Shown piece after piece: positions 114 to 40,037 of a stretch of 44,555 nt of DNA. The notes below the pieces were generated by a model, which was not told the origin of the DNA, made no database searches, and was given only the letters and a program-made list of their open reading frames with translations. The stretch is taken from assembly GCA_011526015.1 (NCBI GenBank), contig WYBG01000315.1, forward strand, positions 1 through 44,555, written 5' to 3'. The position numbers were made by a program, and so were the translations under genes. Source of the DNA: Deltaproteobacteria bacterium. Lineage in GTDB: Bacteria; Calditrichota; Calditrichia; RBG-13-44-9; J075. How positions within the stretch are numbered: position 1 is the first letter of the stretch; every line of letters starts with the position of its first letter.

Positions 114-680
114 GTGAACGGTATTGATTCTAAAAACTATGGAGAGTTTTTTGAAAAATTGGCTTCTGATAAGACAGAAATTGTTCTTGTAAAAGAATCA
201 CTTGACAAATTTGACTTAAAATATTTTGAGATTGTTAATTACAAGAATAATGAGGTGAAAATACAATTTTTTCCTATCAACATAAAAAACAAAGATATAA
301 AATATTATTCTTTTGCGAAATTCGCTGCATACTTTAGTTGGTATGAAAAAGTATTCGCATTGCTCTTATATATTTTTTTGATTGTATTATTTACAAGAGG
401 ATTATGGGAAACTTTCAGAAAAGCGGGACGAAACAGCAATCTTTCCATAATTCCGATTATTCGGTTCATAGAAATTGGCAAAATATTGGAATTGCCAAAA
501 TGGCAAATATTTATATTATGTATTCCACTTATAAGAATGGTTTTGTCCTATCATATATCTATTAAAACCTGTAAAGCCTATGGACTAAAAGGTAATTTGC
601 TTAAAGGTGTTGGAATAATTTTTCCTGGAATATTATGGACCTATATTGGATTGAATTATAATGTCAAATATTTGGGATGA
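114..680 (+). CDS. DUF5684-like small integral membrane protein with an N-terminal soluble extension
   Basis: GTG-start ORF. The C-terminal half (WETFRKAGRNSNLSIIPIIRFIEIGKILELPKWQIFILCIPL...AYGLKG...GIIFPGILWTYIGL) follows the KAG..W..lIP...WW..l..iP...FGK pattern I associate with the DUF5684 family and has several hydrophobic helices. The next ORF starts 10 nt downstream. Confidence 0.5.
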   Translation: MNGIDSKNYGEFFEKLASDKTEIVLVKESLDKFDLKYFEIVNYKNNEVKIQFFPINIKNKDIKYYSFAKFAAYFSWYEKVFALLLYIFLIVLFTRGLWETFRKAGRNSNLSIIPIIRFIEIGKILELPKWQIFILCIPLIRMVLSYHISIKTCKAYGLKGNLLKGVGIIFPGILWTYIGLNYNVKYLG

Positions 681-689
681 AAGGTTCTT

Positions 690-1301
690 ATGGGAAACGA
701 ATCTCAACTACCCGTTGATGAAATTGTCGGCTTTCTCAATTCCTATCATAATGAAACTCTAATCAAATTAAAAACCAAGTACCCGGAATACAGTGAAATA
801 TTTGAAATTGGCATTAGAGCTGGAGAAGAAATACGCGACAAGAATGAACTTGAAGTAAGAACTGAGCTTTGCATAGAAGGATTAAAGGCAATTGTTCTAT
901 CGTGCGAAGAATACATCCCAAAAATTAGGAAAAAAATCAGAACAAGTAATAGACTTTCCTTCACTGCTCAAATTATAATCCTAATAAGTAGCGGCTCAAT
1001 AATTCTTTTACTAAAAGAAAACTATGGAAAGTTAATGGGGTATATTGGGGCTTCATTGGCTTTGATCGGTTCAATCATATCTTTGATAGCTCAAAACAGG
1101 TTAAGCAATCTCAGGCCAAATTCAGATGATTTAGTTAAGACTTTGGAAAAACTGGTTTCAAACAAATTAGAGGCACAAAGAATTCTGCAAGAATTAAAAA
1201 TTTCCATAAAGTTTCAAAATTCTTTTGAAACTATTAAATCATTTATAATTGCAGGCAATGACCTTTCGTTTAAGACACAGAAGCTCTTGGATTTAATCTG
1301 A
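690..1301 (+). CDS. Hypothetical protein with two central TM helices flanked by helical/coiled regions (possible SLATT-like membrane effector)
   Basis: ATG at 690 is preceded by AAAGG. Two adjacent hydrophobic helices (FTAQIIILISSGSIILLL and LMGYIGASLALIGSIISLIA) sit mid-protein. The SLATT-like idea rests on topology only. Confidence 0.45.
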   Translation: MGNESQLPVDEIVGFLNSYHNETLIKLKTKYPEYSEIFEIGIRAGEEIRDKNELEVRTELCIEGLKAIVLSCEEYIPKIRKKIRTSNRLSFTAQIIILISSGSIILLLKENYGKLMGYIGASLALIGSIISLIAQNRLSNLRPNSDDLVKTLEKLVSNKLEAQRILQELKISIKFQNSFETIKSFIIAGNDLSFKTQKLLDLI

Positions 1302-1355
1302 AACAGAATTGATTCATCTTTATAAAATTTGATCTTGAAAATTGGAGAAAATCTT

Positions 1356-1679
1356 ATGAAGGCACTTACGAGATTCGAATTAGGAGACGGAACCATAATT
1401 TATGTAGAAGATGATTCAATTCAAGGACTAACTAATGTAACTCCGGTAGTACGGGGAGGTGAAATTCCACCTAAGATTAAACAGAAGTTTGAAGGTGAAA
1501 TAGAAAAGGTAAAACCGGTTTCCGAAAAATTGATTTCAGAATTAAGTGGGTTAAGCAAAAAACCTTCTGAAATCGAGGTAGAATTCGGCTTCAAATTGAG
1601 TGGGAGTGTAGGATTTGTAATTACTTCTGGAGAAGCAGAAGCAAATTTTAAGGTAAAATTGGTATGGAAACAAAAATAG
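1356..1679 (+). CDS. Trypco-type (trypsin/CHAT co-occurring, CU044_2847-like) small protein
   Basis: The track ORF starts at a TTG (1329). I prefer the ATG at 1356, preceded by GGAGAAA. N-terminus MKALTRFELGDGTIIYVEDD and C-terminus EIEVEFGFKLSGSVGFVITSGEAEANFKVKLVWK match the family pattern (FEL.dG..v.VEvd ... veFg.kl....g.vi......a.f.V.L.W) as I recall it. Confidence 0.6.
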   Translation: MKALTRFELGDGTIIYVEDDSIQGLTNVTPVVRGGEIPPKIKQKFEGEIEKVKPVSEKLISELSGLSKKPSEIEVEFGFKLSGSVGFVITSGEAEANFKVKLVWKQK

Positions 1680-1687
1680 TAACCCCT

Positions 1688-3202
1688 TTAATCTTGCATT
1701 ATTAAAATTGGAGAAATCCATGTAAAATCATCCCGATTTATAGTAGCCAGTTTGCGTCTTGCATCTAGTAATGCAAGTTCGGGCAGCCCATGTTTTGCCA
1801 ATGATTTATAAAATTCTACTGCAAGGGTTTTTGCGCCTTCATCAGAGACATTCCAGCGGAAACCTAATATTGCTGGAATTCCTGTGTGTGTCAAGAGGCT
1901 ATCTGCAAGTCCTAAGGAGTTATCATTAAGTAACTTAGAGATCTCCCCTGTTTCCATTCCTCTGCAACAACTTAAATAAACGAAGCGAGTTTCAGAATCT
2001 TGAAGAAGCATTTGAAGTTGATCAGCTGCCATTGGTTTGATTTCACCTGCACAATTAGGTTTTTCCCAGAAAAAGATAGAGCTTTTTTCTGGAGATTCTA
2101 CGTCAAAAGAGCCATGTCCTGCATAATGAATTACATGATACTCTTTACATTTTTCTAACTCCTCACAAACCACATCATATGTTGCTTCATTAGTTCGAAT
2201 CGATTTAATAAAGACAGGAATTTGTTTCTCTTCAAACAGTTCCCTTAAAGAATCGTTTAAGATGTTAATCTCTTCATCAACCAAAGGCATATTGCCTATA
2301 TCCGAAGCAATGAGAAGTATTTTAAACTCAGTATGAGAAGCCCAGATCTCATTGTTAAAAAATTCAGGTGTTATAGTTTTTTTCTTTTTTTCAGTATGAC
2401 TAATCAATCTTGTTAATGGATGTCTTAGAACAAGATAATCTTTTTTGTTAAAAAGAAATTCAATTGGTACTTTCAAAAAGTGAATATTTGATACAAATTG
2501 AAGATGTAATTCACGTGGATGTTCTAGTTTGCCATACGTCTCATGATATTTGTCATAGACTTCTTTATGTTCATCAAAAATTTTCCTATATAAATCTTCT
2601 CCTACTTTAGATGATATGTACCGCCAAAAGTTTTGTCTATTCTCGTCATCTTTGAAATTTTGAGAAAACGCCGTTTTTGCCTCGCTGTTAAGTATGTCGA
2701 CCTCAATATCCAATACATTTTTGGTATAGGACTGATAAGTCTTCGCACCACGTAGATTAATATAAATTGAACGTTGCGATTCACATGAAAGAGAGAGTGT
2801 GTAACCTATCTTAGATTTTCTAAATGGAGGCAATTCCTCTAATAATTTATTTACTTTTGCTTCAAGAACTGTTTTACCGTATGGCTTAGGCAAATAATCA
2901 TCTGCCCCTATAGTTAAGCCTTTTGTAACATCTTGATCACTACGCTTATGCGTAAGCATCAATATCTTTATATGTTTGGTCTCAGGGGATGATTTTAAAT
3001 GTTTACATACTTCATACCCGTCCATTTTAGGCATTACGATATCGAGTATAATCAATTCTGGATTATATTTTTTTACTTTTTCTATTGCTTCAATTCCATC
3101 ATGGGCAATCACGACCTCATGCCCAAGACTTTTTAATTGATCTTCAAGAAAAATTACTATTCTTGGATCGTCTTCCGCAATCAATATATTAGCTTTTCTC
3201 AT
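1688..3202 (-). CDS. Response-regulator receiver domain fused to a CHAT (caspase-like) protease domain
   Basis: The N-terminal REC domain reads ILIAEDDP...ELIILDIVMPKMDGYEV...KILMLTHK...GADDYLPKP. The C-terminal CHAT-like domain has a His motif (HVIHYAGHG) and a Cys motif (VYLSCCRG). Its ATG overlaps the kinase stop by 1 nt (TAATG). Confidence 0.85.
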   Translation of the reverse strand: MRKANILIAEDDPRIVIFLEDQLKSLGHEVVIAHDGIEAIEKVKKYNPELIILDIVMPKMDGYEVCKHLKSSPETKHIKILMLTHKRSDQDVTKGLTIGADDYLPKPYGKTVLEAKVNKLLEELPPFRKSKIGYTLSLSCESQRSIYINLRGAKTYQSYTKNVLDIEVDILNSEAKTAFSQNFKDDENRQNFWRYISSKVGEDLYRKIFDEHKEVYDKYHETYGKLEHPRELHLQFVSNIHFLKVPIEFLFNKKDYLVLRHPLTRLISHTEKKKKTITPEFFNNEIWASHTEFKILLIASDIGNMPLVDEEINILNDSLRELFEEKQIPVFIKSIRTNEATYDVVCEELEKCKEYHVIHYAGHGSFDVESPEKSSIFFWEKPNCAGEIKPMAADQLQMLLQDSETRFVYLSCCRGMETGEISKLLNDNSLGLADSLLTHTGIPAILGFRWNVSDEGAKTLAVEFYKSLAKHGLPELALLDARRKLATINRDDFTWISPILIMQD

Positions 3203-6200
3203 TACAATCCTCTCTGCTTTAAAGGTAAAGTAAAGATAAACGTACTTCCTGAGTAGAGTTTACTCTTCTCGACCGCAATTTTACCACCATGCATTTCAAT
3301 ATACTTTTTTACAATATACAAGCCAACACCTGTACCCTGAACTTTAAATTCAGGATGAGAGACAACTTGATACCGCTCGAATATCTTTTCATATTGATTT
3401 TCGGGGATTCCTCTTCCTGTATCTTCTACTCTAACTACAACCTCGCCTTGTTCAACACTAACTAATAATATTACAGACCCTTTGGGAGCCTCAATGTATT
3501 TGATAGCGTTGTAGATCAATTCTGAAACAACAAATTTAATTTTTTCTTCATCTAATAAAATCTCATAATTAGTATTATCTTTAGTATTCAATTTTAACTC
3601 GATTCCCTTCGATTCGGCCCAAAATGTAAACTTTTCGATTACCTTAAGAATTATTGATGATATGTTTACGAATTCGGGATTAAAGGATTCATTGTTTTTT
3701 TGTAATTGAAAATGATATCTGTATTTTTCAATCAAATCTACAGCTTCATTAACACTCGAAAAAGCTAATTCTACTTTGGAGCGCTGATCTTTCGTAATTT
3801 TTCCATATTTTCCATCTAATAGCATCTCTAAACAACTTTTGATCGGGGTGAGAGGGTTACTTAATTCATGATAGGCAGTCGAGAAAAGATCTGTTTTCTC
3901 TTGGTCAGATGCTTTCAGCTGTTCATATGCCTTTTCCAAATCTGATGCTCGCATTTCGAGATTTTGATTTATATTTGCATTTTCTAATGCAATAGCTGCA
4001 TAAGAAGCTAAGTTTTCGAGCCATCTTCGAGCACGCTCTTTGTATGCATTTTTCTCCATGCTCTGAACAGTTAGCTCGCCTATAAATTTGTCTTTTACAA
4101 TGAGAGGTAGGTATATCAGTGATAAAGGAGTACCACTTACCCCCTTCTCATCTTCAATAGGTGCTTTTTCAAAGCGATCATCATTTAGCAAATCATTACT
4201 AATAATAATATCCTTCTCTACATAACATTTCACAGCAGCGCGATTTTTATCCTCTTCGGAGTTTAATGATATAGGATTTGCTTTTGACCTTGTATGATTT
4301 TCAATGTAGAGGTCATATAGCAACAACCCTCTTTCCTCATCTAAACTAATAATTGCAAATGTATATGCATCGACTGCTTTATTAACTTCTTCATAAATTT
4401 TCTCTAAAGTTTGATCAATTGACAGTGTAGAGGTCAATTTTCGGCCAATTTCACTTAAAGTTTCTAAATCTTTATTTCGTGCTTCTGCCTGTTCCTCTTT
4501 GATTTTGTGGAGGTGAATTTTTTTTCTGGCAGAAGATCTGTATAGGGCAAAGATTAAAGAAAAAATCAAACCCAGAGATATAATTAAGGTAGGCAAGAAG
4601 TATTTTTCCGAAATTGGAGAGTCTTTAATTTTTATTTTAAATGACTTTTCCGTTGAGGAGCTTACATCTACTCTAACGTTAAATGTGTATTCTCCGGGTG
4701 GTAAACTAGAATATTCCCTAAAATTACTCGTACTCTTAACGAAACCAGTATCCACCCCTTCAAGTTTAGACTCATAAAGATGTTTTCCTTGACGTGCAAA
4801 ATCAGATGTAGTAAAACTAATTTTGAATGAAGTCTGTGTATATGGTAATTCTATACCCTTCTCAGAAATAGGTCTTTTGGTTGGGACCGTATCACTGCCA
4901 TAAGATTCAAAGTCAGTTATGATCACTTGAGGAGGGTTAGTATCTTGTTTTATAGTTATACTATCGGGATGAAAAACGTTGAACCCATTAATTCCTCCAA
5001 AAAACATCCACCCCTCATTATTCTTAAGATACGCACCTCCATTAAATTCATCCCCCTGGACTCCATCTTCGATAGAAAAGTTAGTAAAAGCTTCTTGATC
5101 ACAATCAAATTTTGAGATGCCTCTGTTCGTACTTAACCATAAATTGTCACGAGCATCGATTAATATTCCATAAATCAAATTATCTAGTAAGCCTTTTTTC
5201 TGATCATACACCTTCGCTGAATCTTTATCAATTTCATATTTTATTAGTCCGTTTTCTGTTCCTAACCACAAACCGTGTTTATTCTGATTTATTGCATAAA
5301 CATTTTCAGTTTTATTAATAACAGTATCTTGTTTTACTGTTTTATTCTCCCCATCACCAACACATTTCCACAACCCTTTTCCCATAGTTCCGATCCATAA
5401 AGTCGCGTTAAATGAATCATCATATAAGGCATAGATAGAGATCGTGTCTAATTCTTGAACTCTATTCGGATAAGATTCAATATCTTTAACCTCCTCATTA
5501 AATTTGTAGCGGAAAAGTCCGCTATCATTCGTTGCAATCCAAAGTGTATTGTCCCGATCCTTTAAAATTTTCAAAATTCTTAACTGTAATGGAAATACTT
5601 TGGAAGGTTCTATCTTTTTCTCTTTTATATCAAAAATATACAGGCCGTCTCCCTCTGTTCCCAAGAAAATTACATCCTTCTCTTTATATATGGACCTAAT
5701 TGTTAGTGCGAAAGGATTACGATTTTGGAAATATGATTTATTGTTTTTGAATTCTGCCTTACAAAAATCATCAGAAAAATTAGCTTCTACCAAACCATAG
5801 CTACTTGTACCAATCCAAATCGTGCCTGATTTATCATTTGGTTCTTGAAAGAAAGACCAAATAAAATTATTCTGTATGTTGAAATCATTAGCAGTATCTA
5901 ATGCGATATTACCGCAAGGTTTATAGTAATAGTGATAGAATTTTTCCTCATGGAGCCTGTTTACCCCCCCACCCAAAGTTCCAATCCATAATCCACCATA
6001 TTCATCTTGATAAATTGAGCGAATTCTGTCGTTACTGATAGATTTATAATTACAGGGATCATAAACGTAATTAATAACCGTATCAATTTTTTTCTTATTA
6101 GGTGACTCAAAGATTAATTTATTAAGCCCGCCCTCCTCAGTTCCAATCCACAATATTTTTGGAGACAACCTATCCTCTAAAATGCATCTGATGAATTTAC

Positions 6201-7155
6201 CAAATTGATTGGGACGCTCTGCCTTTATTTTGGTGGCATAATCTACACTCTCAAAATTAATTTTAGAGATATCGACACTTTGATCTAAAGTTACTTTTGA
6301 TCTCCAAAGGCCATGTCTCTCAGTTCCTATCCATAATACTTCTGAGTTATCTCTATATATCGTTCTTATACTGCATGTATCAAATTCACTAAAGTGGATA
6401 AAAACTTTTTCTTCAGACTTACTTTGATTCTTTTTTCCCAATAGATTTAATCCTTTTCCAGTCCCAATCCACAGGTTTCCTTTCCTATCCTTTTCAATAG
6501 AATAAACATTGTTATGACTTAATGCTTGTAGTTCATCAGTCTTCTTAATTTTTTTTCCATCATTTTTATAAGGATGAAACTCAGACTTCCTTTTATCGAA
6601 TCTATTTAGTCCGCCACCTTCGGTTCCAATCCAAAGAATATTCTTTGTGGTAGACGTATCTTGGAAGATAACTGTAACCCGATTATGGCTTATACTTTGT
6701 TTCGAAGTACCTTTCTTGAAAGACTTGAATTCTTCTTTATATTTATCAAATCTAATTAAACCTCCCGCATTAGTACCAATCCACAAAAGACTTGAATCAC
6801 CTTTGTCTTTTTCTTCGTGTAAACAGAGAATGAATTTATTTAAACTATCTCCAAACTGCTTATTATAAACAATGAAATCCTTACCATTATATTTATTTAA
6901 GCCATTTTGGGTACCAAACCACATGAGTTTATCCCTATCCTGAAGAATACAATTCACAGCATTAATGGATAAACCATCCTTCGTTGTTAAATGTTGAAAC
7001 TGAACCTCTTTTTCCTCCTGACCGGCATATAGAGCTACCCCCCAAATGAATACTAAAGAAAATAGAATAATGGTTGTAAGTAGTTGGAAGGACAATGTTG
7101 ATTGAATAAGAATTAAATTAGACCTTAAAGATAAAAAATCTTTCGTCTCCATCAT
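3202..7155 (-). CDS. Sensor histidine kinase: TM, two-component-regulator propeller repeats, Y_Y_Y, TM, GAF, HisKA, HATPase_c
   Basis: An N-terminal TM helix is followed by many LWIGT..GL propeller repeats and a Y_Y_Y-like segment (YESKLEGVD...PPGEYTFNVRV). A second TM helix (LPTLIISLGLIFSLIFALY), a GAF-like region, the H-box FSTAYHELSNPLTPI and ATPase motifs (DTGRGIP, GTGVGLYIVKKYIEMHGG) follow. GAGGAGG precedes the ATG. Confidence 0.85.
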   Translation of the reverse strand: MMETKDFLSLRSNLILIQSTLSFQLLTTIILFSLVFIWGVALYAGQEEKEVQFQHLTTKDGLSINAVNCILQDRDKLMWFGTQNGLNKYNGKDFIVYNKQFGDSLNKFILCLHEEKDKGDSSLLWIGTNAGGLIRFDKYKEEFKSFKKGTSKQSISHNRVTVIFQDTSTTKNILWIGTEGGGLNRFDKRKSEFHPYKNDGKKIKKTDELQALSHNNVYSIEKDRKGNLWIGTGKGLNLLGKKNQSKSEEKVFIHFSEFDTCSIRTIYRDNSEVLWIGTERHGLWRSKVTLDQSVDISKINFESVDYATKIKAERPNQFGKFIRCILEDRLSPKILWIGTEEGGLNKLIFESPNKKKIDTVINYVYDPCNYKSISNDRIRSIYQDEYGGLWIGTLGGGVNRLHEEKFYHYYYKPCGNIALDTANDFNIQNNFIWSFFQEPNDKSGTIWIGTSSYGLVEANFSDDFCKAEFKNNKSYFQNRNPFALTIRSIYKEKDVIFLGTEGDGLYIFDIKEKKIEPSKVFPLQLRILKILKDRDNTLWIATNDSGLFRYKFNEEVKDIESYPNRVQELDTISIYALYDDSFNATLWIGTMGKGLWKCVGDGENKTVKQDTVINKTENVYAINQNKHGLWLGTENGLIKYEIDKDSAKVYDQKKGLLDNLIYGILIDARDNLWLSTNRGISKFDCDQEAFTNFSIEDGVQGDEFNGGAYLKNNEGWMFFGGINGFNVFHPDSITIKQDTNPPQVIITDFESYGSDTVPTKRPISEKGIELPYTQTSFKISFTTSDFARQGKHLYESKLEGVDTGFVKSTSNFREYSSLPPGEYTFNVRVDVSSSTEKSFKIKIKDSPISEKYFLPTLIISLGLIFSLIFALYRSSARKKIHLHKIKEEQAEARNKDLETLSEIGRKLTSTLSIDQTLEKIYEEVNKAVDAYTFAIISLDEERGLLLYDLYIENHTRSKANPISLNSEEDKNRAAVKCYVEKDIIISNDLLNDDRFEKAPIEDEKGVSGTPLSLIYLPLIVKDKFIGELTVQSMEKNAYKERARRWLENLASYAAIALENANINQNLEMRASDLEKAYEQLKASDQEKTDLFSTAYHELSNPLTPIKSCLEMLLDGKYGKITKDQRSKVELAFSSVNEAVDLIEKYRYHFQLQKNNESFNPEFVNISSIILKVIEKFTFWAESKGIELKLNTKDNTNYEILLDEEKIKFVVSELIYNAIKYIEAPKGSVILLVSVEQGEVVVRVEDTGRGIPENQYEKIFERYQVVSHPEFKVQGTGVGLYIVKKYIEMHGGKIAVEKSKLYSGSTFIFTLPLKQRGL

Positions 7156-7218
7156 GCCTCCTCATGGCAGATATATTCATTCAGGTTTTTGAGCACTAAA
7201 AGTATTTCATCGATTCCA

Positions 7219-8307
7219 TCATTCCCTGTTCAAATCATTTTCCCCCTCCTCCACCGCATGAACTACAATCCCCGTATCCATAACAACGTAGCCCATTCCA
7301 TTCAGCAGTTTCTCCATGGCCACAGGATCATCGAGCGCCTGAAGGAGAATAAGTTTGACAGTCTGGGGGCTTTCAGCGCCGAATTGCGGTAATATTGATT
7401 TTGCCAGCCGCCAATAGGATTTTTCAAGCTGAGTGCGAATGAGCAGCTTAAATTCAGGGCTCATAAACTTTACTGCGTGCGTGAACGGAGGCTTAATTAG
7501 AACCCATTTTAACTTTTCACCCACTCTCGCAAAAAAGTCAACTTGTCCGCCGACAAATCCTGCCCGTGCCAGCATGCCCGATAGAGATTTACTGCCACCC
7601 AATTCCGGCGCCAGGGGAGTGGCAAAAACTCCTTTGGCGCCTTTAAGTATTTTCATAGAGGTTTTTGAAGTGGCCTCGATACTTTTTGCTGCTGCCCTGT
7701 GCGTATAATGCCAGAGCGGCGTGCTTTGACCCGCAGCACGCTTGATGATTGTGCCGGCAGTTTTGAGAGCGCCGGCGACATCCCTTCCTTGCACTACTTT
7801 GGCAGGCGTTACCAACGCTACCTCAATCTGGCCTGCTAATTGGCCGGTCATTTCAGCAAATTTTTCCGGCTCTTCACTTGCCGCTCTCCAATATTCTTCA
7901 ACCAGCTTCTTCATTCCCTTCTTCGTCTGGTCAAAATTTACCACTAACGTATACATCCCTTTCGCCGTTTCGATGGGATGAAGCACCATGTCCAGCATTC
8001 CCTTGCCAGCCTCCAGAGCTCCTTTAACAACCCCTCTTAAATACCCAAACGACTGTTTCATAATCCCAACTTCTTTCAGACTTTCCCACAAAAGTTCGCT
8101 ATTGCGGATTTCGAGTTCGCCGGCTTCTTCTTTATCAGAATAGTGCTTCTCAACCACCCGCCGCACCGCCTGAGTCCCCACCAGTTGCTGCATCTCAAAG
8201 ATCGGATGCGCCTCCTGCGCACTCAACGCAGTTGAACCCGCGGGGTGAAGAACACTTTTGTTCTTATCCGCCTGCTTTATTCTGATCGCTTCAAAAAAAG
8301 GCATCAA
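7219..8307 (-). CDS. Hypothetical protein, putative eCIS payload/effector
   Basis: This is the last GC-rich gene of the eCIS operon. The N-terminal segment IFEMQQLVGTQAVRRVVE resembles the LQR.iGNqAv.rLl leader seen at the N-termini of DUF4157/eCIS-associated proteins. The internal LWHYTHRAAAKSIE...GAKGVFATP loosely resembles HYD1-type ART toxin signatures (weak). Confidence 0.5.
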   Translation of the reverse strand: MMPFFEAIRIKQADKNKSVLHPAGSTALSAQEAHPIFEMQQLVGTQAVRRVVEKHYSDKEEAGELEIRNSELLWESLKEVGIMKQSFGYLRGVVKGALEAGKGMLDMVLHPIETAKGMYTLVVNFDQTKKGMKKLVEEYWRAASEEPEKFAEMTGQLAGQIEVALVTPAKVVQGRDVAGALKTAGTIIKRAAGQSTPLWHYTHRAAAKSIEATSKTSMKILKGAKGVFATPLAPELGGSKSLSGMLARAGFVGGQVDFFARVGEKLKWVLIKPPFTHAVKFMSPEFKLLIRTQLEKSYWRLAKSILPQFGAESPQTVKLILLQALDDPVAMEKLLNGMGYVVMDTGIVVHAVEEGENDLNRE

Positions 8308-8323: not shown

Positions 8324-8545
8324 TCATTTCGCTTTGCCGGTTTTCTCCCCTTTGGGATTATTCTCCTCCCCCTCCTTCCCCAACTCCTCCTCCAACACCT
8401 GAATCGCCCCGCTGATGCGCAGCAGGGTGCTGCGCAGGTTGGCTTCCTGGGCTTCCAATTCCGCTAACCGCTTCTGGCCGGCTTCGAATTCGGCTTTAAG
8501 CTCAGCGAGTCGTTTTTTTAGCTGTTCCTGCATATTGTTCTCCAC
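8324..8545 (-). CDS. Small coiled-coil protein (possible fibre-assembly or adaptor factor)
   Basis: 73 aa with heptad-like LAELKAEFEAGQKRLAELEAQEANL and a charged lysine/glutamate tail. It is tightly packed between the fibre gene and the putative payload gene. Confidence 0.5.
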   Translation of the reverse strand: MENNMQEQLKKRLAELKAEFEAGQKRLAELEAQEANLRSTLLRISGAIQVLEEELGKEGEENNPKGEKTGKAK

Positions 8546-8549
8546 ACTT

Positions 8550-10748
8550 TCACTTTACCAGCCATAACTCTACTTTATCCGAAATGTCTTTAATTTTAAT
8601 CCAACTGGGAGCGACAGGTTGACCTTTGCGCAGCGGTAATTGGCCCAGCAATCCCACGCAATTCCATTCCCCCCGTTTTTCCCGGGGAATGTATTTTTGG
8701 GTCTCATCATAATCGGGATTCAATTTCGGGCGAAGTTTCTTTTCGAATTTTCCGGTTCCTGCCATTACCGGGTTTCCTTCTTCATCCAAAACATCAATTT
8801 CTTCAGTTACTTTCTTTTTACCTTTTTCATCTTTTTTAATCACCTTTTCTTTTTTCGGAGCCATGATCTCCTCTTTGTATTCTTCCATAATCACCTGGCC
8901 AAATTCATCTCGAAGATATTTTTTGGGCCACTCTTTATAACAATTCCCTACGATAGAGGGGTTCGCAGATATAATACCGATGGGAACATCTCCTTTCATT
9001 GCAGATCTGATTTTCCCCCTTTCTGTTAACTTTACAGATGTTCCAATGGGAATCTCAGAGGCGTTATCGGATTCGAAATACTCAGCATAGTCAGTATTCG
9101 TCGTATACCACCCTACCGAACTATAACAGCGGCCTCGAACATCTAATCGGTCATCTTCAGGATCAATCACAAATGGTCCAATACCAACATGACCGCCTAT
9201 ATAGTTATATCCCCCCCCTATTCTCATTAAAGTTGCATACCCAAGCCGAGGAACGGGATATCCTATGTGAAATATCCCTAATAATCCTACATTTAATTTT
9301 AGTTCCTTGGTAGAAACTCTGGAAAACCACATTTGATTAGCATTTGGAGCGGATGTACTTATCGCCAAACTGCCATTTACATCTAAGGTTCCCTGGGGAT
9401 CAGCCGTGCCAATCCCAACCTTCCCCTTCACAATCAAATCATTTTTACCGGGATTGGCATAATTATAATTGTCGGACACTAAAATTCCACCTGCTTGTAA
9501 TCCCCAGGCAGAGGTTTCACCGGTTGCGTTTATAAGTTTAAGATAGTGGTTGTGTTCTACGTTATCGGAAGCGCCATATAAAACTACACTTCCTCCTTGT
9601 TTGTCAAGCACAACATCTCCGGCAACGTGTAATTTTTTAGCAGGGCTTGTCGTTCCGATACCAATATTCCCGGTAGCATTCGAGATAAATAACCTGTCTG
9701 TCCCGGAAGTTCGCAAATGGAGATTGGTCGTTCCCTCTCCATCGAACACGGCGCCGCCCGTTCCCACCCAGAATTGAGCGCTTTTACTTCCATCCGCATT
9801 TTCAATTCGTAATCCACGCTGGGAGCTGGATGCAGTTTCTTTTATTACCAGGCGATAGTTGCCGGTAGTAATCGTACCGATGCCGACATTGCCGGTCCCC
9901 CTGATCACCAGGGAGGGTTCTACAATGCCATCATTACCCGTATTCACAAATACGATGCCGCCATCCGGATCGGGGTCGTTACCATCTGTTTTCTCTATAA
10001 TAAGGGCATCCAGGCTGGAGCCAAAAAAATGGTTCTCCTGTCTTATCCTGAAACCATCCGAATTCGGGGTTCCGGATTCATTTGTTCGATGGAAAAGTAA
10101 TGTTACTGGGGATCCGGAATTTGATAATTTTATAGCTCCCTGGACATCCAGGGAGCCTTCCAACCTTGCCAGCCGGTTTTCCTCCAGTCTCAAATATGCC
10201 CATTCGCCCTCCGGAAATTTTGGATCCCCGATAGTCAGGCTGCCGGCAGCGCCGGAAATCCGGCGGTGGTTGGGCGGCTCGCCCTCTCCAACCGGCTCCT
10301 GAACGATCCCGCCGGCAATTTGAACCACCCCCAGGATCAACTGACTGCCGGGGTCCGCCGGGGGATTCTCCAGAATTTCGATTTCCCATTTCTCGGTCCA
10401 GCGGGTGCGCTCTTCGGAGGTCAGGTTGCCTTCCGGGGGATCGGTTTTCTCCTCGTAATACTTGATGGTGACATACCGGCTTGCGCTGCCGCTTACCGCA
10501 ATGGATTTAGTCTCTGCCAGCGGCAGAACAATCTCCCGCCCGGAACTGTCAATTGCCATTCCCGGGGAGATGCGGATCTCCTGGTCGCTCTCTTTGCTGA
10601 CCAGCAGCCCCTTCACCACCCCGGAAGTGTGCAGGCTGCGGTTGTGGCGGCGGCACTTTTCCAGGTGGTATTTTTGCTCATCGGTAAAATCCGCTTCTTT
10701 TAAAAATTGCTGATCGTAATAATGCAGACGTTTGATCTCTTCCGGCAT
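8550..10748 (-). CDS. eCIS tail fibre (Afp13-like) with a C-terminal peptidase-G2-type intramolecular chaperone/autocleavage domain
   Basis: Repeated GN(V/I)GIGT and GKVGIGTADPQGTLDVNGS fibre motifs occur mid-protein. The C-terminal TDYAEYFES...IPIGTSV...PIGIISANPSIVGN...WPKKYLRDEFGQ...REKRGEWNCVGLLGQLP matches the phi29 gp12-like IMC domain pattern. Confidence 0.75.
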   Translation of the reverse strand: MPEEIKRLHYYDQQFLKEADFTDEQKYHLEKCRRHNRSLHTSGVVKGLLVSKESDQEIRISPGMAIDSSGREIVLPLAETKSIAVSGSASRYVTIKYYEEKTDPPEGNLTSEERTRWTEKWEIEILENPPADPGSQLILGVVQIAGGIVQEPVGEGEPPNHRRISGAAGSLTIGDPKFPEGEWAYLRLEENRLARLEGSLDVQGAIKLSNSGSPVTLLFHRTNESGTPNSDGFRIRQENHFFGSSLDALIIEKTDGNDPDPDGGIVFVNTGNDGIVEPSLVIRGTGNVGIGTITTGNYRLVIKETASSSQRGLRIENADGSKSAQFWVGTGGAVFDGEGTTNLHLRTSGTDRLFISNATGNIGIGTTSPAKKLHVAGDVVLDKQGGSVVLYGASDNVEHNHYLKLINATGETSAWGLQAGGILVSDNYNYANPGKNDLIVKGKVGIGTADPQGTLDVNGSLAISTSAPNANQMWFSRVSTKELKLNVGLLGIFHIGYPVPRLGYATLMRIGGGYNYIGGHVGIGPFVIDPEDDRLDVRGRCYSSVGWYTTNTDYAEYFESDNASEIPIGTSVKLTERGKIRSAMKGDVPIGIISANPSIVGNCYKEWPKKYLRDEFGQVIMEEYKEEIMAPKKEKVIKKDEKGKKKVTEEIDVLDEEGNPVMAGTGKFEKKLRPKLNPDYDETQKYIPREKRGEWNCVGLLGQLPLRKGQPVAPSWIKIKDISDKVELWLVK

Positions 10749-10769
10749 GGCGCCCTCCGGTTAATATTC

Positions 10770-11357
10770 TCAGGTAGTAGTTGTGGTTCCTAAAATGGTA
10801 TCCACCCCGATGGTGGAGTGAACCCCGATCTGCAAGGTCGGGTGCTGAATTGAAAGGTTATAGAAAGTATGGGCAGGTTTTTCCCGGTCTAAAAGGGCAA
10901 TAACCTGCCGGGCCTTCCGCCTCAACTCCGGATGGTTATACCCCGGAAATTGCATGATCACTTTAAATCCATGAATATTATCCTCATCGTCCGGGGGCAG
11001 CTCCTCGACATCTACAAATGAGCCTACATAAAGCCGCAGGTAGCTCCGCAAACCCTCCAGTGTGCCCCGCTGCCGGTACAGCTCCCCGATATGGCGCAGC
11101 ACATTGCGGGTCTGCCATTCGCTCCAATCCTCGTCGATGTAAAGCGCCGCCCAGGCCGCTAAGTAGGGCAGGAATGCTGCCGGGGTGCTGGAAGCATTGA
11201 ACAGTTTCGGAAGATCATCCACCCTGCTTTCCAGGTCGTAAAACAGGCGCTGGAAGATTCTTAAGAAGCGGCGCAGAAAATCTTTCGGCGCTTCTTCATG
11301 CTCCCAGAGCGCCGGCGGAAGGTATTGTAAAAAGCTCTCTTCGTTCTCATACGCCAT
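10770..11357 (-). CDS. P2 gpI-like phage tail/baseplate protein (Afp12-like)
   Basis: The track start is a TTG at 11363. I prefer the ATG at 11357. FLQYLPPALWE...FLRRFLRIFQ...LPKLFNASSTPAAFLPYLAAW is typical of the conserved phage-tail-region protein found next to baseplate J. Confidence 0.7.
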   Translation of the reverse strand: MAYENEESFLQYLPPALWEHEEAPKDFLRRFLRIFQRLFYDLESRVDDLPKLFNASSTPAAFLPYLAAWAALYIDEDWSEWQTRNVLRHIGELYRQRGTLEGLRSYLRLYVGSFVDVEELPPDDEDNIHGFKVIMQFPGYNHPELRRKARQVIALLDREKPAHTFYNLSIQHPTLQIGVHSTIGVDTILGTTTTT

Positions 11358-11359
11358 GG

Positions 11360-13402
11360 TCAACTCCCCGGTATGATTTCATTCTCTTCCTGTTCCACGG
11401 TGATGTCATAATTGAGATCGTTTTTCTCTGCAGGACAGATCAATTGGTAATCTTCTAATGCCAGGCGAATCCCGGCGGTCGAAACCGGTGCGTTGTTATG
11501 ATCTACCCCTTCAACGGTTAGCTCCGCCACGTAACTGATCGCCGACAATGCATTCATAATCTGGAAAACCTCCGGGATATACAAACTCTGCCCGATATTC
11601 CACCCCTTCCCCTCGAGGCCGCCTTTTACCGGGTGCAGAAAATCGTAGAGGGTATCCTGGATTTCTTTTTTAACATTTTCGGGATTGTAAGCGGGTTTCG
11701 CATACACCGTGGCTTTTACTTTGATCTCCACGTAATAGGGCTTCAGCGGATCCATTAATATGCTGGTGACCGTTCTCCGTTGATCCAGGTAGCTTTTCAC
11801 CGCGGCGATCAGATCCACATCCGGTTCCGGTCGGCGCTCTTCCTTATCTTCCGGAACGATGATCAGGTTTACCTTTCCGGGGGTTCTTTCGAACGGCTGG
11901 GTTACCCAGGGTTCATTGACCCCTCTTTTCGGCGGGAAGCAGCGCGCCTTCGCCACCTCGGTGCTCGCTTCCCGGGCCAGGAATTCATAATCTTCCGTGC
12001 TGACTGCCCGGTTGTGGGTTCTGATCGCTTCCGGCGCCCGTTTTTTGGTCTCCTCTATCGGTTCCCAGTCGGTTCCGCCCCGGGCGGCTTCCTCGTTGGC
12101 CACCCCGCTGACGCCGGCGATGGGGGTGCGCTGCACCTTAATCGTACGGGCGGGAACGTTTCCGTTGCTTTCCCCGGCAACATAGCGGTAAGAAACCGCT
12201 TTGATCTGGCTGCCCTCGTCGGGAATCCGCCCCTGTCCCGGTTTTTCCGGATTGCCGGTGGGATAATTGCCGAAGGTAATTTCCCCGGTTATTGGGTTGC
12301 ATAAATACTGCTCTACGTTTTCACCGCTAAAATTTTCCACCCGCTGCCAGTTGAGCCAACCGTTTCCTTCATCCACCGCAATCACCAGGTGTGCTAGGCC
12401 GTTTGCTCCCTGGTGCAGGGGGGTGTTTTTCAGGCTAAATATCTGGAAGGGTTTTCCGCTGCTGACCCCCAGCAATTCTTCTTTAACCGTGATAACATTG
12501 CGGGCGGCGGTGATATTGCCGGCTAAGCGCTGCAACTCGATTTCCAGTGGGTTTTGCGCATCCAGGTTAGTCAGCCGCGCACCGATCCAATAAAAGGGTT
12601 CGCTGACTGCTACTTCATTCTCGGCCGGCGTTGCTCCCCAGTCTGCCGGTTTAAAAGATTGCCAGTCGGCAGTATTCGTGATATGGATATTTACCCGGGC
12701 GGATGATTCGAATAAAAACAGGCGGTCCGGGGTTGCCAGGGGCCAGCCCTCCGGCGGCGGCGTTACCGTGGGATTCTGGGGATCGATACCGGAATGGCGC
12801 CAGAAGACCTCCGTATCAGGCTCGCTCGGCGGTTTCAGCCGGAAGGTCAGCGCCAAATCCTGATCGGTGGGCAAAACCAACCCCATCAGGAGCCAGCGGG
12901 TGGCGCCTGCGGGAACGGTCAGGGTTACCTTTTGAAATTTTTCAACACATAACTTGGATGACAAATTTTGATAGGCATTATCTTCTCTTAAAAAAATACA
13001 ACTTTTAATATTCACGGCATGGAATGTCCTGTCGGTTTCGAAGATAATCCCGTCTTCGCTTCCCGAAGGCAGGGTGGATACCTGGGTCCCCCCGGGAATG
13101 GCGAGGGCAGTATCCCCGGTAAGGTCGAAGGTAATATCCGCCTGCGCCGGCATGGGCGGGTCGCGGGTAATCCCGATCAAATTGAGGAATTCGAAGTAAT
13201 TCTTTTCCGGAACCCGGTTGAGGCGGTAGATCATCTGTTCAGTCAGCCAGGCGAACAACTCGATCAGGGTGATCCCCAGGTCCGAAGGATTGTGGTCGGT
13301 CCACTCCGGGGTGTAGCGCGGGATCAATTTTTTTGCCTCCTCAACCAGGTCCACCCAGGTGCGGTCATCTAAATTGGGCGCGGTCAGTTTACCTTTGGAC
13401 AT
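11360..13402 (-). CDS. Baseplate J-like protein (gp6/Afp11-like baseplate wedge)
   Basis: The track start is a TTG at 13420. The ATG at 13402 has AGAAGGA upstream. The N-terminus (LDDRTWVDLVEEAKKLIPRYTPEWTDHNPSDLGITLIELFAWL) is the canonical putative-baseplate-assembly-protein start. The gene lies between the gp25 and gpI homologues. Confidence 0.8.
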   Translation of the reverse strand: MSKGKLTAPNLDDRTWVDLVEEAKKLIPRYTPEWTDHNPSDLGITLIELFAWLTEQMIYRLNRVPEKNYFEFLNLIGITRDPPMPAQADITFDLTGDTALAIPGGTQVSTLPSGSEDGIIFETDRTFHAVNIKSCIFLREDNAYQNLSSKLCVEKFQKVTLTVPAGATRWLLMGLVLPTDQDLALTFRLKPPSEPDTEVFWRHSGIDPQNPTVTPPPEGWPLATPDRLFLFESSARVNIHITNTADWQSFKPADWGATPAENEVAVSEPFYWIGARLTNLDAQNPLEIELQRLAGNITAARNVITVKEELLGVSSGKPFQIFSLKNTPLHQGANGLAHLVIAVDEGNGWLNWQRVENFSGENVEQYLCNPITGEITFGNYPTGNPEKPGQGRIPDEGSQIKAVSYRYVAGESNGNVPARTIKVQRTPIAGVSGVANEEAARGGTDWEPIEETKKRAPEAIRTHNRAVSTEDYEFLAREASTEVAKARCFPPKRGVNEPWVTQPFERTPGKVNLIIVPEDKEERRPEPDVDLIAAVKSYLDQRRTVTSILMDPLKPYYVEIKVKATVYAKPAYNPENVKKEIQDTLYDFLHPVKGGLEGKGWNIGQSLYIPEVFQIMNALSAISYVAELTVEGVDHNNAPVSTAGIRLALEDYQLICPAEKNDLNYDITVEQEENEIIPGS

Positions 13403-13416
13403 CAGCGGTTTCCTTC

Positions 13417-13809
13417 TCAAGGTTGTTGCAGACTGAACGGATAGATAATCTCACCCGGTTCCCGGGTGGATTTTATGTGATAGCGAATGTAGATGATCAA
13501 TTTCCCTTCGGTTTGATCGCTCTCCACGGTTACCTCTTCCAGAACGATCCGCGGCTCCCAGGTGCTTAGCGCCTCTTCCACGTAAAATTTCGCTAAGTTG
13601 GCGGTAGAGGCGTTCAGCGGGGCAAACAGGAGGCTTTTCAGATTGCTGCCGAAATTGGGCCGCATGAGCCGCTCCCCCCGCCCGGTGCCGAGAATAACCA
13701 GAACCGATTGGCGGATTTTTTCATCATCCCGGGCTTCTTGAATACCGCCGCGGTTATTCAGGCTGAGCGGGCAAGAAAAACCTTTATTGAGTGTTTCTCC
13801 ATTCGCCAT
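13417..13809 (-). CDS. GPW/gp25-family baseplate wedge protein (Afp9-like)
   Basis: 130 aa. ILGTGRGERLMRPNFGSNLKSLLFAPLN and the C-terminal beta region are typical of the gp25 lysozyme-like fold family. Confidence 0.85.
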   Translation of the reverse strand: MANGETLNKGFSCPLSLNNRGGIQEARDDEKIRQSVLVILGTGRGERLMRPNFGSNLKSLLFAPLNASTANLAKFYVEEALSTWEPRIVLEEVTVESDQTEGKLIIYIRYHIKSTREPGEIIYPFSLQQP

Positions 13810-13839
13810 AGCGGATTTTCTCCATAACTGAATTTTATA

Positions 13840-14238
13840 TTAATCGCCGGCAAAAACGGTGGTGTCTCCGGAGAGAACATTCCCGTTGGCATTGCCGTCA
13901 TTATGCAAAGTCGGATCGAACATCCTTATGATTGAAAAACCATTGACATACACACTCTGGCTGCCGCGGGTAAATCGAACCGGGCCTGCAACCGTATTGC
14001 TTTTAATGCCTTTCCCTGTACCCGCCTCATCCCCGGTGCTGAAGGGTATCTCGTGTTGTTTGTGCACCACTGCTTTACCCCGAATCCACACGTTAGCAGA
14101 GGAATCCTGAATATCTGCCAGGTCGCCGCTGTTGGGATATGGGACCGGCTGCTGGGAAGAACCTACCGGGGTCCAACATACATCCGGAAATCCATAACAA
14201 ATAAATCCCTTTGTCTGGGTAGCGACCGGTTTGCTCAT
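13840..14238 (-). CDS. PAAR-like spike-tip protein (DUF4150 type)
   Basis: FPDVCWTPVGSSQQPVPYPNSGDLAD...VWIRGKAVV...STGDEAGTGKGIKSNTVAGPVRFTRGSQSVYVNG...RMFDPTLHN matches the DUF4150 PAAR-like pattern. An ATGA overlap couples it to the upstream gene. Confidence 0.75.
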   Translation of the reverse strand: MSKPVATQTKGFICYGFPDVCWTPVGSSQQPVPYPNSGDLADIQDSSANVWIRGKAVVHKQHEIPFSTGDEAGTGKGIKSNTVAGPVRFTRGSQSVYVNGFSIIRMFDPTLHNDGNANGNVLSGDTTVFAGD

Positions 14239-15062
14239 GCCACGCCTCCTTCCACGGTCAGTGAGATATAGCTTTCCGGCGGATATGCCTCAAAGTCCCA
14301 ATACCCCCGCCAGACAATGATATAGGTATCCAGTTCCTTTTCGATAATGACGGTATCCAGAGCAAGCGGAATATTGATCTCTTCCTCGCTGCCATTTTCA
14401 TCCTTAATCCTTAGCGTTGCGGCCGGGCGGGTATCGGGCAGAAACACCTGAAAACTCACCGGCGGCGGTGGGATGATGGGCGGAGCAGGGCGGCGCTCCG
14501 AACGGATGGTTAGTTTTACGCCGTCTTCCAGATGAGGCAAAGGAGTATCGCCGGTGATATTTCGGTCCCAGCCGTTGTAAAATTCATTTTCGAAGCCTTG
14601 TGGCAAAATCATGGATTCCGGATCAAAATGTTCCAAATCTACACCCGCCTGCTGCAACCGTGGGACTTCTCCCCGGGGCGCCCAGCCGTAGATCGTAAAT
14701 GGATTCGTCCCGGTAAAATCTTTTTCAATATGTAAACCGGTATCGGTTTCCACCACAATGTACCACATCCCTGACGGCAGTCCGTCGGGAGGTTCGGGAG
14801 TTCCCAGAATAATCATATCCGTATCGGGCTTAAAGGGAACCATGTCGCTTTCATAGCGGATAACCTTTTCGGGATTATTGTTGAACAGCACATCCCCGCG
14901 GCATACCGCTGCCTGGGATTCCCCGGGCATCACCACCGGCGCATCCATATCCTGAAAAGTTCCTTTGACGATAACGCTCCCTATTTTCTCAATCGTTCCG
15001 TTGGTCATTTTGTGGCCGATCAGGAACTCTGTTGGATAAATGTCATGTTTTTTTATTCGCAC
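14235..15062 (-). CDS. Hypothetical protein, DUF2169-like (VgrG/PAAR-associated adaptor-like), tentative
   Basis: GTG start with GAGG upstream. VKGTFQDMD...VIRYESDMVPFKPDTDMIILGTPEPPDGLP resembles the N-terminal DUF2169 pattern (l.y.sDl.p.Kp.tDvll.G.a..P.g). A proline run (PAPPIIPPPPV) is present. The gene lies between the spike and PAAR genes. Confidence 0.45.
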   Translation of the reverse strand: MRIKKHDIYPTEFLIGHKMTNGTIEKIGSVIVKGTFQDMDAPVVMPGESQAAVCRGDVLFNNNPEKVIRYESDMVPFKPDTDMIILGTPEPPDGLPSGMWYIVVETDTGLHIEKDFTGTNPFTIYGWAPRGEVPRLQQAGVDLEHFDPESMILPQGFENEFYNGWDRNITGDTPLPHLEDGVKLTIRSERRPAPPIIPPPPVSFQVFLPDTRPAATLRIKDENGSEEEINIPLALDTVIIEKELDTYIIVWRGYWDFEAYPPESYISLTVEGGVA

Positions 15063-15072
15063 CTGCAGTACC

Positions 15073-16644: not shown

Positions 16645-16655
16645 CTTTCAATTCC

Positions 16656-17288
16656 TTACCGCGGTTTGGTCAGCCGCTTTGCCGGGGGAATCTTCAATTG
16701 GGTGCCCGGCGGTATCCTTCGCGGATCGTCGATATTGTTGTACTCCGCAATTTCCCGCCAGGCGGCAGGATCGCCCAGCGCTTCTCCGGCAATTCCGCTC
16801 AGGGTCTGCCCGGAGAGCAGGTTATGAACGGTAGGCGGGCCGATAAAAAAGCCCCGCCGCACCTCGATCTCTACCGGTTGAAATTCTTTGAAATTTACCG
16901 AAAGGGTTGCCCGCACCGGGACGCCGTCGCGCAGAAACATGGTAAATTTTTGGCTGACGCTCTCCAGCACGCATTTAAAATTAAACCGCCCCCAGGAGAA
17001 CAACAGCAACGGCGGCGCCTTGCTGATGGGGTTATTATCCAGCAGCGCGGTGATCCGCCGGGTGTGGGCGCGCACATCGGTCTTTGATTCATAGGTATCA
17101 AAAAACAGTTCCATCTTCAAGGTCTGGATATTCCCCCGGATGTATTGAAGGGGCGGATTGGCCAGTCCCGGGATGCCGATCTCCGCAAAGGCGTTGCTCT
17201 TATCCAGGGAATATTCTTCCGGGTTGAACATCACCGGGATCTGTTCATGAGTCTGGGTATTGATAATCAGGGCTTTTTCTAAGGCCAT
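16656..17288 (-). CDS. LysM-containing CIS tube-initiator protein (Afp7/gpU-X-like)
   Basis: The N-terminal tube-like domain reads PVMFNPEEYSLDKSNAFAEIGIPGL...LKMELFFDTY. The C-terminal LysM reads GQTLSGIAGEALGDPAAWREIAEYNNIDDPRRIPPGTQLKIP. Confidence 0.85.
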   Translation of the reverse strand: MALEKALIINTQTHEQIPVMFNPEEYSLDKSNAFAEIGIPGLANPPLQYIRGNIQTLKMELFFDTYESKTDVRAHTRRITALLDNNPISKAPPLLLFSWGRFNFKCVLESVSQKFTMFLRDGVPVRATLSVNFKEFQPVEIEVRRGFFIGPPTVHNLLSGQTLSGIAGEALGDPAAWREIAEYNNIDDPRRIPPGTQLKIPPAKRLTKPR

Positions 17289-24879: not shown

Positions 24880-25271
24880 TCCCTTTCTGCAAAGATTACT
24901 TACTAATCCCTTTTGGTTTGTGAACAATTATACGAATATCAAATGATTTTATCAATACCTAAAATCAATTTTAATAGTATGGAATGATGGGGTATTACTC
25001 CAAAGGAGTCATTTTGTGAGAAAATCCTTCCACTCAACACTTCCTATCGATCTGCCCGATGCAGGCGGGCCGCCAGGCAGCTAATACTCCGTTTACCCCC
25101 ACAAAAATCTATTTCTTAAATACTACAAAACCACGCCGCATCGCTCCTTCTCCCCTTCCAGGTGGTAATATACTGGTAATACACCCCCCATTTTCAGGTA
25201 ATTTTAGGTAATTTGAGGAGGAGGAAAATAAGCACTTAATTACAATGAAATCAATATAATGTATTCCGATT

Positions 25272-35121: not shown

Positions 35122-35188
35122 TTGCTCAGTTGATGCCTTGTGTTTTTTGTTTTATGGTAAATAGTTCAGCTATCGCAACACGCAGGCG

Positions 35189-37682: not shown

Positions 37683-37704
37683 CCTGTATATGCTGTCTAA
37701 TTTT

Positions 37705-39992: not shown

Positions 39993-40037
39993 TTTAAAAA
40001 AAGTGGAGAGGGATAGCGCGGGTAAACAGAGGATATA

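Follow-up and report, generated by a model that had tools for sequence, protein, structure and literature searches.

In a stretch of 44,555 nucleotides (contig WYBG01000315.1 of assembly GCA_011526015.1, in the following called the window) two overlapping genes at 1688-7155 encode a sensor histidine kinase with two predicted transmembrane (TM) helices and a response regulator, in which the receiver domain (REC) is joined to a caspase-like CHAT domain. They belong to a cassette of five genes with low GC content, another of which encodes a protein of the Trypco1/Pepco family. We give a probability of roughly 0.5 to the reading that this mobile cassette of ~7 kb is a two-component death/defence switch, in which a phosphorelay would activate the CHAT protease and the protease in turn a Pepco pore.

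A receiver-CHAT regulator overlapping a sensor kinase gene

The response regulator (1688..3202, minus strand, 504 aa) was annotated by Pfam, alignment and an AlphaFold2 model. It contains REC at residues 6-117 (nt 2852-3187), a conserved PPF linker and N-terminal CHAT extension at residues 125-227, and CHAT at residues 228-491 (nt 1730-2521). The Pfam matches are 1.8e-26 for Response_reg and 1.3e-24 for CHAT (PF12770, 87.6 bits vs a cutoff of 24). A preliminary description of this DNA had proposed that a receiver with an intact phospho-acceptor is fused to CHAT in place of a DNA-binding output, and this is borne out, as the motif ILDIVMPKMDG includes D54 (nt 3041-3043) and the residues E10/D11, T84 and K106 are present. 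The His and Cys of the proposed dyad could be assigned to H363 (nt 2114-2116) in HYAGHG, which also includes H359, and to C413 (nt 1964-1966) in LSCCRG, which also includes C412. Judged by these residues, the output of the regulator is predicted to be a catalytically intact caspase-like CHAT protease.

The AlphaFold2 model of REC-CHAT reached a pLDDT of 89.4 and a pTM of 0.88, and its sole disordered or low-confidence stretch (residues 415-428) lies right after the catalytic Cys. When the model was compared with solved structures using Foldseek, REC resembled OmpR/PhoB-type receivers including BeF3-activated PhoB and YycF, with target-normalised TM-scores of 0.92-0.97. The remainder resembled Csx29 (8eex_B, 7y9x_B) with an E-value of ~6e-11 and a query-normalised TM-score of 0.42, and Csx29 was the only non-receiver structure among the top matches. 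By sequence, no match of the CHAT part to solved structures was detectable. According to the model, CHAT of the regulator would have the caspase/hemoglobinase fold.

The sensor histidine kinase (3202..7155, minus strand, 1317 aa) was annotated by Pfam, hydropathy and motif positions, and its ATG is preceded by the Shine-Dalgarno-like GAGGAGG. Two hydrophobic segments, TM1 (residues 14-43, nt 7027-7116) and TM2 (residues 853-875, nt 4531-4599), flank a region of ~810 aa with Reg_prop beta-propellers and Y_Y_Y (residues 44-852, nt 4600-7026). They are followed by GAF (residues 911-1058, nt 3982-4425), HisKA (residues 1087-1145, with His1096 at nt 3868-3870) and HATPase_c (residues 1202-1313, nt 3217-3552). 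The Pfam matches are 7e-40 for Reg_prop, 1.9e-7 for Y_Y_Y, 2.2e-13 for GAF_2, 3.6e-6 for HisKA (27.4 bits, narrowly over the cutoff of 26.9) and 8e-25 for HATPase_c. The E-values of the kinase and regulator domains are far below chance. The H-box, AYH(1096)ELSNPL, is accompanied by an intact E-x-x-N phosphatase motif, and the N, G1 and G2 boxes (YNAIKY, DTGRGI and GTGVGL) are intact as well.

A positively charged stretch, YRSSARKKIHLHK, comes after TM2, in agreement with an extracytoplasmic sensor. The sensor appears to consist of a double propeller with Y_Y_Y, while GAF would be cytoplasmic. The order TM-Reg_prop-Y_Y_Y-TM-GAF-HisKA-HATPase, as first described, was confirmed by Pfam and hydropathy. 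The likeness to the hybrid sensors of Bacteroides (BT4663 type), which had also been pointed out, holds only in part. The extracytoplasmic Reg_prop and Y_Y_Y domains between two TM helices are shared. However, the kinase of the window is non-hybrid, as it ends with HATPase_c and has neither a fused receiver nor an AraC-type DNA-binding output in Pfam, and it has GAF inserted before HisKA. At the junction of the two genes (GGATTGTAATGAGAAAA / TTGTAATGAG) the TAA stop of the kinase and the ATG of the regulator have one A in common. The 1-nt TAATG overlap and the limits of both open reading frames (ORFs), which lie on the minus strand, had thus been called correctly. Judged by this overlap, the two genes are translationally coupled.

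The REC-CHAT family and its histidine kinases

Among 5.8 billion protein clusters a word-indexed search picked out ~90 full-length REC-CHAT proteins with ~500 aa and 30-53% identity. HMMER was also run exhaustively on 1.84 billion representatives, with the CHAT part alone as query, and gave 181 matches at E <= 1e-30. Most of these have ~500 aa, with an N-terminal extension the size of a receiver, and STAND-NTPase fusions of ~700-770 aa make up a second group. All come from metagenome-assembled genomes (MAGs), mostly of Chloroflexota and Desulfobacterota. The matches in 185,579 scanned species genomes were likewise all in MAGs, the majority of Chloroflexota/Anaerolineae, plus Desulfobacterota, Acidobacteriota and a few others. 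By these searches REC-CHAT is a genuine family, though a rare one, and is known to date only from uncultured bacteria. The viral contigs of IMG/VR gave no real match to the family, and a phage origin was rejected on this ground.

Conservation was determined from an alignment of 34 REC-CHAT members. D54 is the same in all of them, and the conservation of T84 and K106 is 90% or more. The preliminary description had made its proposal depend on the dyad being conserved in orthologues. His-Gly at 363 and Cys at 413 are kept in 33 of the 34 members, so that the proposal stands on this point. In the lone exception, P0078, His363 and Cys413 are both gone, and H359 is retained. The joint loss of these two residues, with H359 still in place, points to H363/C413 as the functional dyad.

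A histidine kinase gene regularly accompanies REC-CHAT. In all nine relatives that were checked singly the gene that directly precedes REC-CHAT in the same orientation encodes a large histidine kinase, usually with several GAF domains. Of 40 distinct REC-CHAT ORFs in the genome scan, 27 have a kinase within the 8 kb upstream according to a strict script, a count that short contigs and missed or overlapping start calls make a minimum. Among the metagenome loci whose upstream sequence extends over at least 1.5 kb the kinase is present in 32 of 34 (~94%). The REC-less relatives of CHAT have a kinase in only 1/29 loci of the genome scan and 3/10 of the metagenome scan. These counts argue that kinase linkage is specific to the REC-containing members and that kinase and REC-CHAT form a cognate kinase/regulator operon. 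The divergence of the kinases is correlated with that of REC-CHAT (Mantel r = 0.89), which carries little weight since it is expected of any co-inherited neighbours. The survey of the REC+CHAT architecture, which had been suggested together with the first description, has thus returned a family with conserved D54 and dyad and a linked kinase.

Receivers of conflict systems were described by Aravind and colleagues as occurring apart from histidine kinases (PMC7159879, PMC8195603), whereas the REC-CHAT family is kinase-linked. Such receivers, together with the dyad-less P0078, would fit an alternative in which CHAT is a non-catalytic scaffold or REC a kinase-independent pseudo-receiver, e.g., a nucleotide-responsive switch as has been proposed for the receivers of other conflict systems. 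However, we consider this very improbable, given the conservation of D54, T84, K106 and the acidic pair, the dyad in all members except one, the kinase adjacent in ~94% of the loci with enough flank and the intact H-box with its E-x-x-N motif.

The family shows two arrangements. In clade A, which includes the window, the kinase gene is directly followed by REC-CHAT. In clade B the order is kinase, REC, REC, REC-TCAD9 (kinase-like) and then REC-CHAT; TCAD9 is an aminoglycoside/RIO-kinase-like domain. Operons of clade B were found at L033 (7556-11849) and L034 (6324-11375) and also in L022, L029, L040 and L042. The propeller/Y_Y_Y sensor occurs only in the window, in the related Logan contig L100 and in a Caldilinea MAG (L020), and most members use cytoplasmic multi-GAF kinases. 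In the Caldilinea MAG (L020, 4187-9969) the gene of a Uma2-family endonuclease lies between a Reg_prop/Y_Y_Y/GAF ORF and a GAF-HisKA-HATPase ORF, upstream of REC-CHAT, which looks like a propeller-type kinase broken by an insertion.

In variants of the family this CHAT domain is fused to EAD7, TIR_2 or STAND NTPase modules, and the neighbours of REC-CHAT are often restriction enzymes, Mrr, TIR proteins and transposases. On the basis of these fusions and neighbours the family was placed among the conflict/immunity systems. In EAD7-REC-CHAT and related loci, proteins with an RNA-binding S1 domain (S1-REC-GAF-HATPase; L006/L013 1-1143, L096 2170-4488) adjoin a giant multi-GAF kinase, which hints at RNA sensing that may feed the relay. 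In L043-L049 (~8900-14250 each) closely related CHAT domains are fused to STAND modules (nSTAND2/AAA_35), and the conserved genes that follow encode an nSTAND2-Trans_reg_C protein and an nSTAND-adenylate/guanylate cyclase.

The low-GC cassette and a relative with an exchanged module

The cassette of five genes (123..7190) has a GC content of 28-36%, and the GC content at third codon positions (GC3) of its genes is 25-31% vs 47-69% in the flanking genes of an extracellular contractile injection system (eCIS). Overall, the first 7.2 kb of the window have 33% GC and the rest 46-60%. Besides the kinase and the regulator the cassette contains a tight plus-strand operon, convergent with REC-CHAT, of a DUF5684 membrane-domain ORF (114..680, 188 aa; Pfam DUF5684, 9.6e-12), the orphan gene p203 (690..1301, 203 aa) and the Trypco1 gene. 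Hydropathy predicts a 2-TM hairpin in p203 (residues 89-107 and 115-133), and the DUF5684 protein was likewise counted as a 2-TM protein. For p203 no match was found in Pfam, NCBIfam or PADLOC, and its sole homologue in the 5.8 billion clusters is the copy on L100 with 94% identity. A conserved third gene of the system was not apparent, since neither p203 nor DUF5684 was found in any of 78 genome and 80 metagenome loci.

The foreign composition implies that the cassette was acquired horizontally and inserted later. That the GC jump comes from a chimeric assembly was rejected, as several Logan runs independently yielded this gene order and both their contigs and L100 reproduce the junction. At the cassette ends no flanking repeats and no target-site duplications were found, and a promoter/terminator scan gave sites no more numerous than in shuffled sequence.

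The Logan contig L100, which also holds the closest homologue of Trypco1, carries the same five-gene cassette at the same site. The amino acid identities between the window and L100 are 87% for the flanking 362-aa protein, 90% for Trypco1, 94% for p203 and 93.5% for the DUF5684 region, vs 71% for the whole kinase and 47% for REC-CHAT. At the nucleotide level sliding identity is 88-98% over 123-1750 and 4650-7642, whereas a block at ~1770-4620 on the minus strand has only 42-63% identity. This block corresponds to TM2-GAF-HisKA-HATPase of the kinase (residues ~845-1317) and nearly all of REC-CHAT. The cytoplasmic signalling/output unit was thus swapped whole, with the sensor and the Trypco1 operon left in place. 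This joint exchange argues for the transmitter module and REC-CHAT as partners that are cognate and co-selected. REC-CHAT of L100 keeps D54 and the His and Cys of the dyad.

Homology to L100 begins at nt 123 of the window, and nt 1-122 are unrelated and of higher GC. What remains in the window of a gene of at least 471 aa is the 5'-truncated DUF5684 ORF; in L100 its frame continues upstream for at least 286 more codons and enters a domain without Pfam match. The Logan contigs of the window lineage all break ~17 nt before the DUF5684 ORF, which suggests a repeat or insertion at that point.

A Trypco1/Pepco-family protein as candidate substrate

The gene next to REC-CHAT (1356..1679, plus strand) encodes a protein of 107 aa, or of 116 aa if an alternative TTG start at 1329 is used. 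It matches Trypco1 (PF19493) over its full length with 2.1e-22 (80 bits vs a cutoff of 24.6) and the CU044_2847 family of NCBIfam with 2e-16, and polar and hydrophobic residues alternate in it (EIEVEFGFKL, NFKVKLVW). It is one of the neighbouring small proteins that the preliminary description had suggested for protease assays. The name Trypco1 goes back to Kaur et al., who gave it to a domain that accompanies peptidases in conflict systems (PMC7159879), and together with Trypco2 this domain was renamed Pepco by Evans et al. (2025; bioRxiv 10.1101/2025.11.14.688446). According to the latter study a Pepco from Streptomyces occurs as a beta-barrel assembled in advance, and SsPepco turns into a membrane-permeabilising toxin once the partner protease removes a cleavable, charged and proline-rich C-terminal tail of 20 residues.

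In the window the stop codons of the Trypco1 and REC-CHAT genes are 8 nt apart, and CHAT is the only peptidase of the cassette. Two distant CHAT genes of clade B, in the Chloroflexota MAGs L033 and L034, have Trypco1 directly downstream on the same strand; in the search of the 78 genome and 80 metagenome loci it was found only there. From this gene context the adjacent Pepco-type protein is the most probable target of CHAT in this locus.

Several observations weigh against the reading as a death/defence switch that acts on Pepco. Trypco1 accompanies REC-CHAT in only 4 of ~86 distinct loci (the window, L100, L033 and L034) and is missing from the others, of which ~80 have usable flanks, and clustering of the downstream genes of 75 loci gave no recurrent family. 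In the window Trypco1 ends 3 residues (KQK) past the conserved ...KLVW strand and thus has no long tail; in L033 and L034 the tails have 10 and 15 residues with Pro, Asp and Glu. Since the gene is convergent with REC-CHAT, it is a separate transcription unit. Trypco1 of L100 is still 90% identical although the protease was swapped for one of 47% identity, which is awkward for highly specific recognition. The model of the Trypco1 monomer, made from an alignment of three sequences, is unusable (pLDDT 47). In addition, a sensor outside the cytoplasm is unusual for the detection of phages, and PADLOC gave only weak candidate-model matches and no defence model that fits, so that a known defence system was rejected.

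Some of these observations would be expected if REC-CHAT were a phosphorylation-gated regulatory or effector-independent protease, with the Trypco1 operon as a passenger. It would then cut itself, the kinase or conserved cellular proteins encoded at other places, in developmental/stress control or by broad proteolysis. The kinase with REC-CHAT is the sole universally conserved unit, no downstream family recurs, the Trypco1 of the window has no long cleavable tail, and EAD7-REC-CHAT looks like a variant that is recruited to partners whose genes lie elsewhere (PMC7159879). Evans et al. (10.1101/2025.11.14.688446) reported that a caspase-like protease provides defence with no effector dedicated to it, and raised the possibility that caspase-like proteases without a partner may themselves be the effector. 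However, Trypco1/Pepco is defined by co-occurrence with peptidases and CHAT is the sole peptidase in a cassette of uniform composition, the pairing of CHAT and Trypco1 recurs in two other distant loci, and Trypco1 was retained in L100 despite replacement of the protease. For the window we regard the effector-independent protease as rather unlikely. For most family members, which have no effector nearby, the protease itself is probably the effector via broad or host-factor proteolysis, because Trypco1 is absent elsewhere, no downstream family recurs and even the Trypco1 of the window has hardly any tail.

The adjacent injection system and the rest of the window

A complete eCIS locus lies at 8550-24517 on the minus strand. 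It encodes a WHD-AAA ATPase, a lysozyme with GH108 and PG_binding_3, Pvc16, sheath and tube proteins, eCIS_core (DUF4157), a LysM-tube protein, a VgrG-like spike, DUF2169, a PAAR-like protein, gp25, Baseplate_J and Tail_P2_I. The eCIS fibre has 732 aa and contains an autoproteolytic Peptidase_G2 domain. Two orphan ORFs at 7219-8307 and 8324-8545 lie between the fibre gene and the cassette and could be eCIS cargo.

The particles of these systems require lysis for release, and the cassette might serve as a regulated lysis module for the adjacent eCIS. The propeller would sense an extracellular cue and signal to CHAT, Pepco and the 2-TM proteins would act like holins, the GH108 lysozyme would lyse the cell and the eCIS particles would be released. 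In line with this, the cassette follows the last eCIS-side ORF (7219-8307) on the same strand at a distance of 63 nt, where the kinase starts, the same junction is found in L100, the sensor is read as extracytoplasmic, and the eCIS locus contains the GH108/PG_binding_3 lysozyme and no obvious holin. However, no eCIS gene was found near any other REC-CHAT locus, the foreign composition of the cassette implies a later insertion, and the lineages of the window and L100 are close relatives and not independent evidence. A function in eCIS release is therefore improbable. A still wider picture, a 'death receptor to caspase to pore' pathway triggered by an extracellular cue, in which a glycan-sensor-like propeller acts via phosphotransfer and lysis by Pepco releases the injection particles, is in our view a long shot.

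Upstream of the eCIS ATPase gene an intergenic direct repeat of 40 nt (24772-24811 / 24843-24882, 98% identical, 71-nt spacing) was found. Further genes of the window encode a protein of 1416 aa (27659-31909, minus strand) with HYDIN/ASH/Cep192-type Ig-like repeats and a FlgD_ig-like C-terminus, whose gene contains internal DNA repeats of 142 nt and 300 nt, and a polysaccharide/O-antigen cluster at 33880-44301 (Wzy_C ligase-like, Polysacc_synt flippase, ATP-grasp-like). Several ORFs of this cluster and an ORF of 595 aa (25668-27455) gave no Pfam match.

Comparison with known systems

The cassette is most akin to Detocs and to the Avs4-protease-Pepco system, and only the protease version of phosphorelay-gated killing is unexplored. 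Detocs (Rousset et al., 2023, bioRxiv 10.1101/2023.01.24.525353) consists of the kinase DtcA, the buffer receiver DtcB and the receiver-PNP effector DtcC, and demonstrates experimentally a defence in which a histidine kinase acts on a receiver-fused killing enzyme. In both systems the receiver is fused to an enzymatic effector and not to a DNA-binding domain, the effector is modular, and the stand-alone receivers of clade B recall the DtcB buffer. The effectors listed for Detocs are PNP, REase, TOPRIM, TM and alpha/beta-hydrolase, whereas the window encodes a CHAT protease. Moreover, Detocs is an operon of three genes with a stand-alone buffer receiver, which the cassette of the window does not have, and its sensor consists of cytoplasmic TPRs instead of the transmembrane propeller/Y_Y_Y or, in the relatives, multiple GAF domains. 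With regard to profile homology to DtcA/B/C, no PADLOC family beyond weak candidates was matched, and the Detocs profiles are possibly outside that release.

With Avs4-protease/Pepco the window shares a gene for a protease, here predicted to be under the control of a sensor, adjoining a gene of the Trypco1/Pepco family. In that system the pore-forming toxin is licensed by cleavage, phage portal protein is recognised by a STAND ATPase as the sensor and the protease is trypsin-like. The window in contrast has a two-component phosphorelay sensor, a CHAT protease and a Pepco almost without C-terminal tail. Kinase-linked versions are not mentioned by Evans et al. (10.1101/2025.11.14.688446). Craspase (type III-E Cas7-11 with the TPR-CHAT protein Csx29) and SAVED-CHAT also use His/Cys proteases of the CHAT fold that are inactive until an upstream sensor signals, but they are activated by binding of target RNA or by cyclic oligoadenylate and not by phosphorylation. 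In CheB (REC-methylesterase) and PleD (REC-GGDEF) phosphorylation of the receiver directly controls a fused enzyme, whereas the output in the regulator of the window is, by sequence, a caspase-like endopeptidase.

Full-text literature searches returned no description of a REC-CHAT regulator, and to our knowledge no response regulator with a caspase-like endopeptidase output has been characterised. The statement in the preliminary description that a phosphorelay-gated CHAT protease is uncharacterised can thus be kept for the protease, but phosphorelay-gated control of a killing effector as such has a precedent in Detocs.

Proposed mechanism and significance

The preliminary description was right in all details that could be checked, and its interpretation is supported as far as sequence goes; the link to Pepco, the cassette of five genes and the module swap sharpen it. 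For the death/defence switch we propose the following sequence of events, in which phosphotransfer, dimerisation or de-repression, substrate and cellular outcome are inferred from the encoded domains. Upon a signal the kinase would autophosphorylate at His1096 and pass the phosphate to Asp54 of the regulator. The phosphorylated OmpR/PhoB-like receiver would dimerise or free the protease domain, a step that would resemble proximity-induced caspase activation or the CheB-type relief of inhibition. His363 and Cys413 would then cleave the target, here most probably the adjacent Pepco-type protein, and the cleaved Pepco would permeabilise the membrane, leading to growth arrest, death or lysis.

With two to five genes, all of whose products can be expressed, the system is readily testable. 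The block exchange between the window and L100 provides natural chimeras for kinase-regulator and protease-substrate specificity. If phosphorylation indeed gates CHAT, a caspase-like output would be seen for the first time in a response regulator. If the proposed switch is correct, it would represent a third trigger of protease-licensed bacterial cell death, after nucleotide signals and STAND oligomerisation, and through its transmembrane sensor it would be among the rare death/defence effectors that are controlled from outside the cytoplasm.

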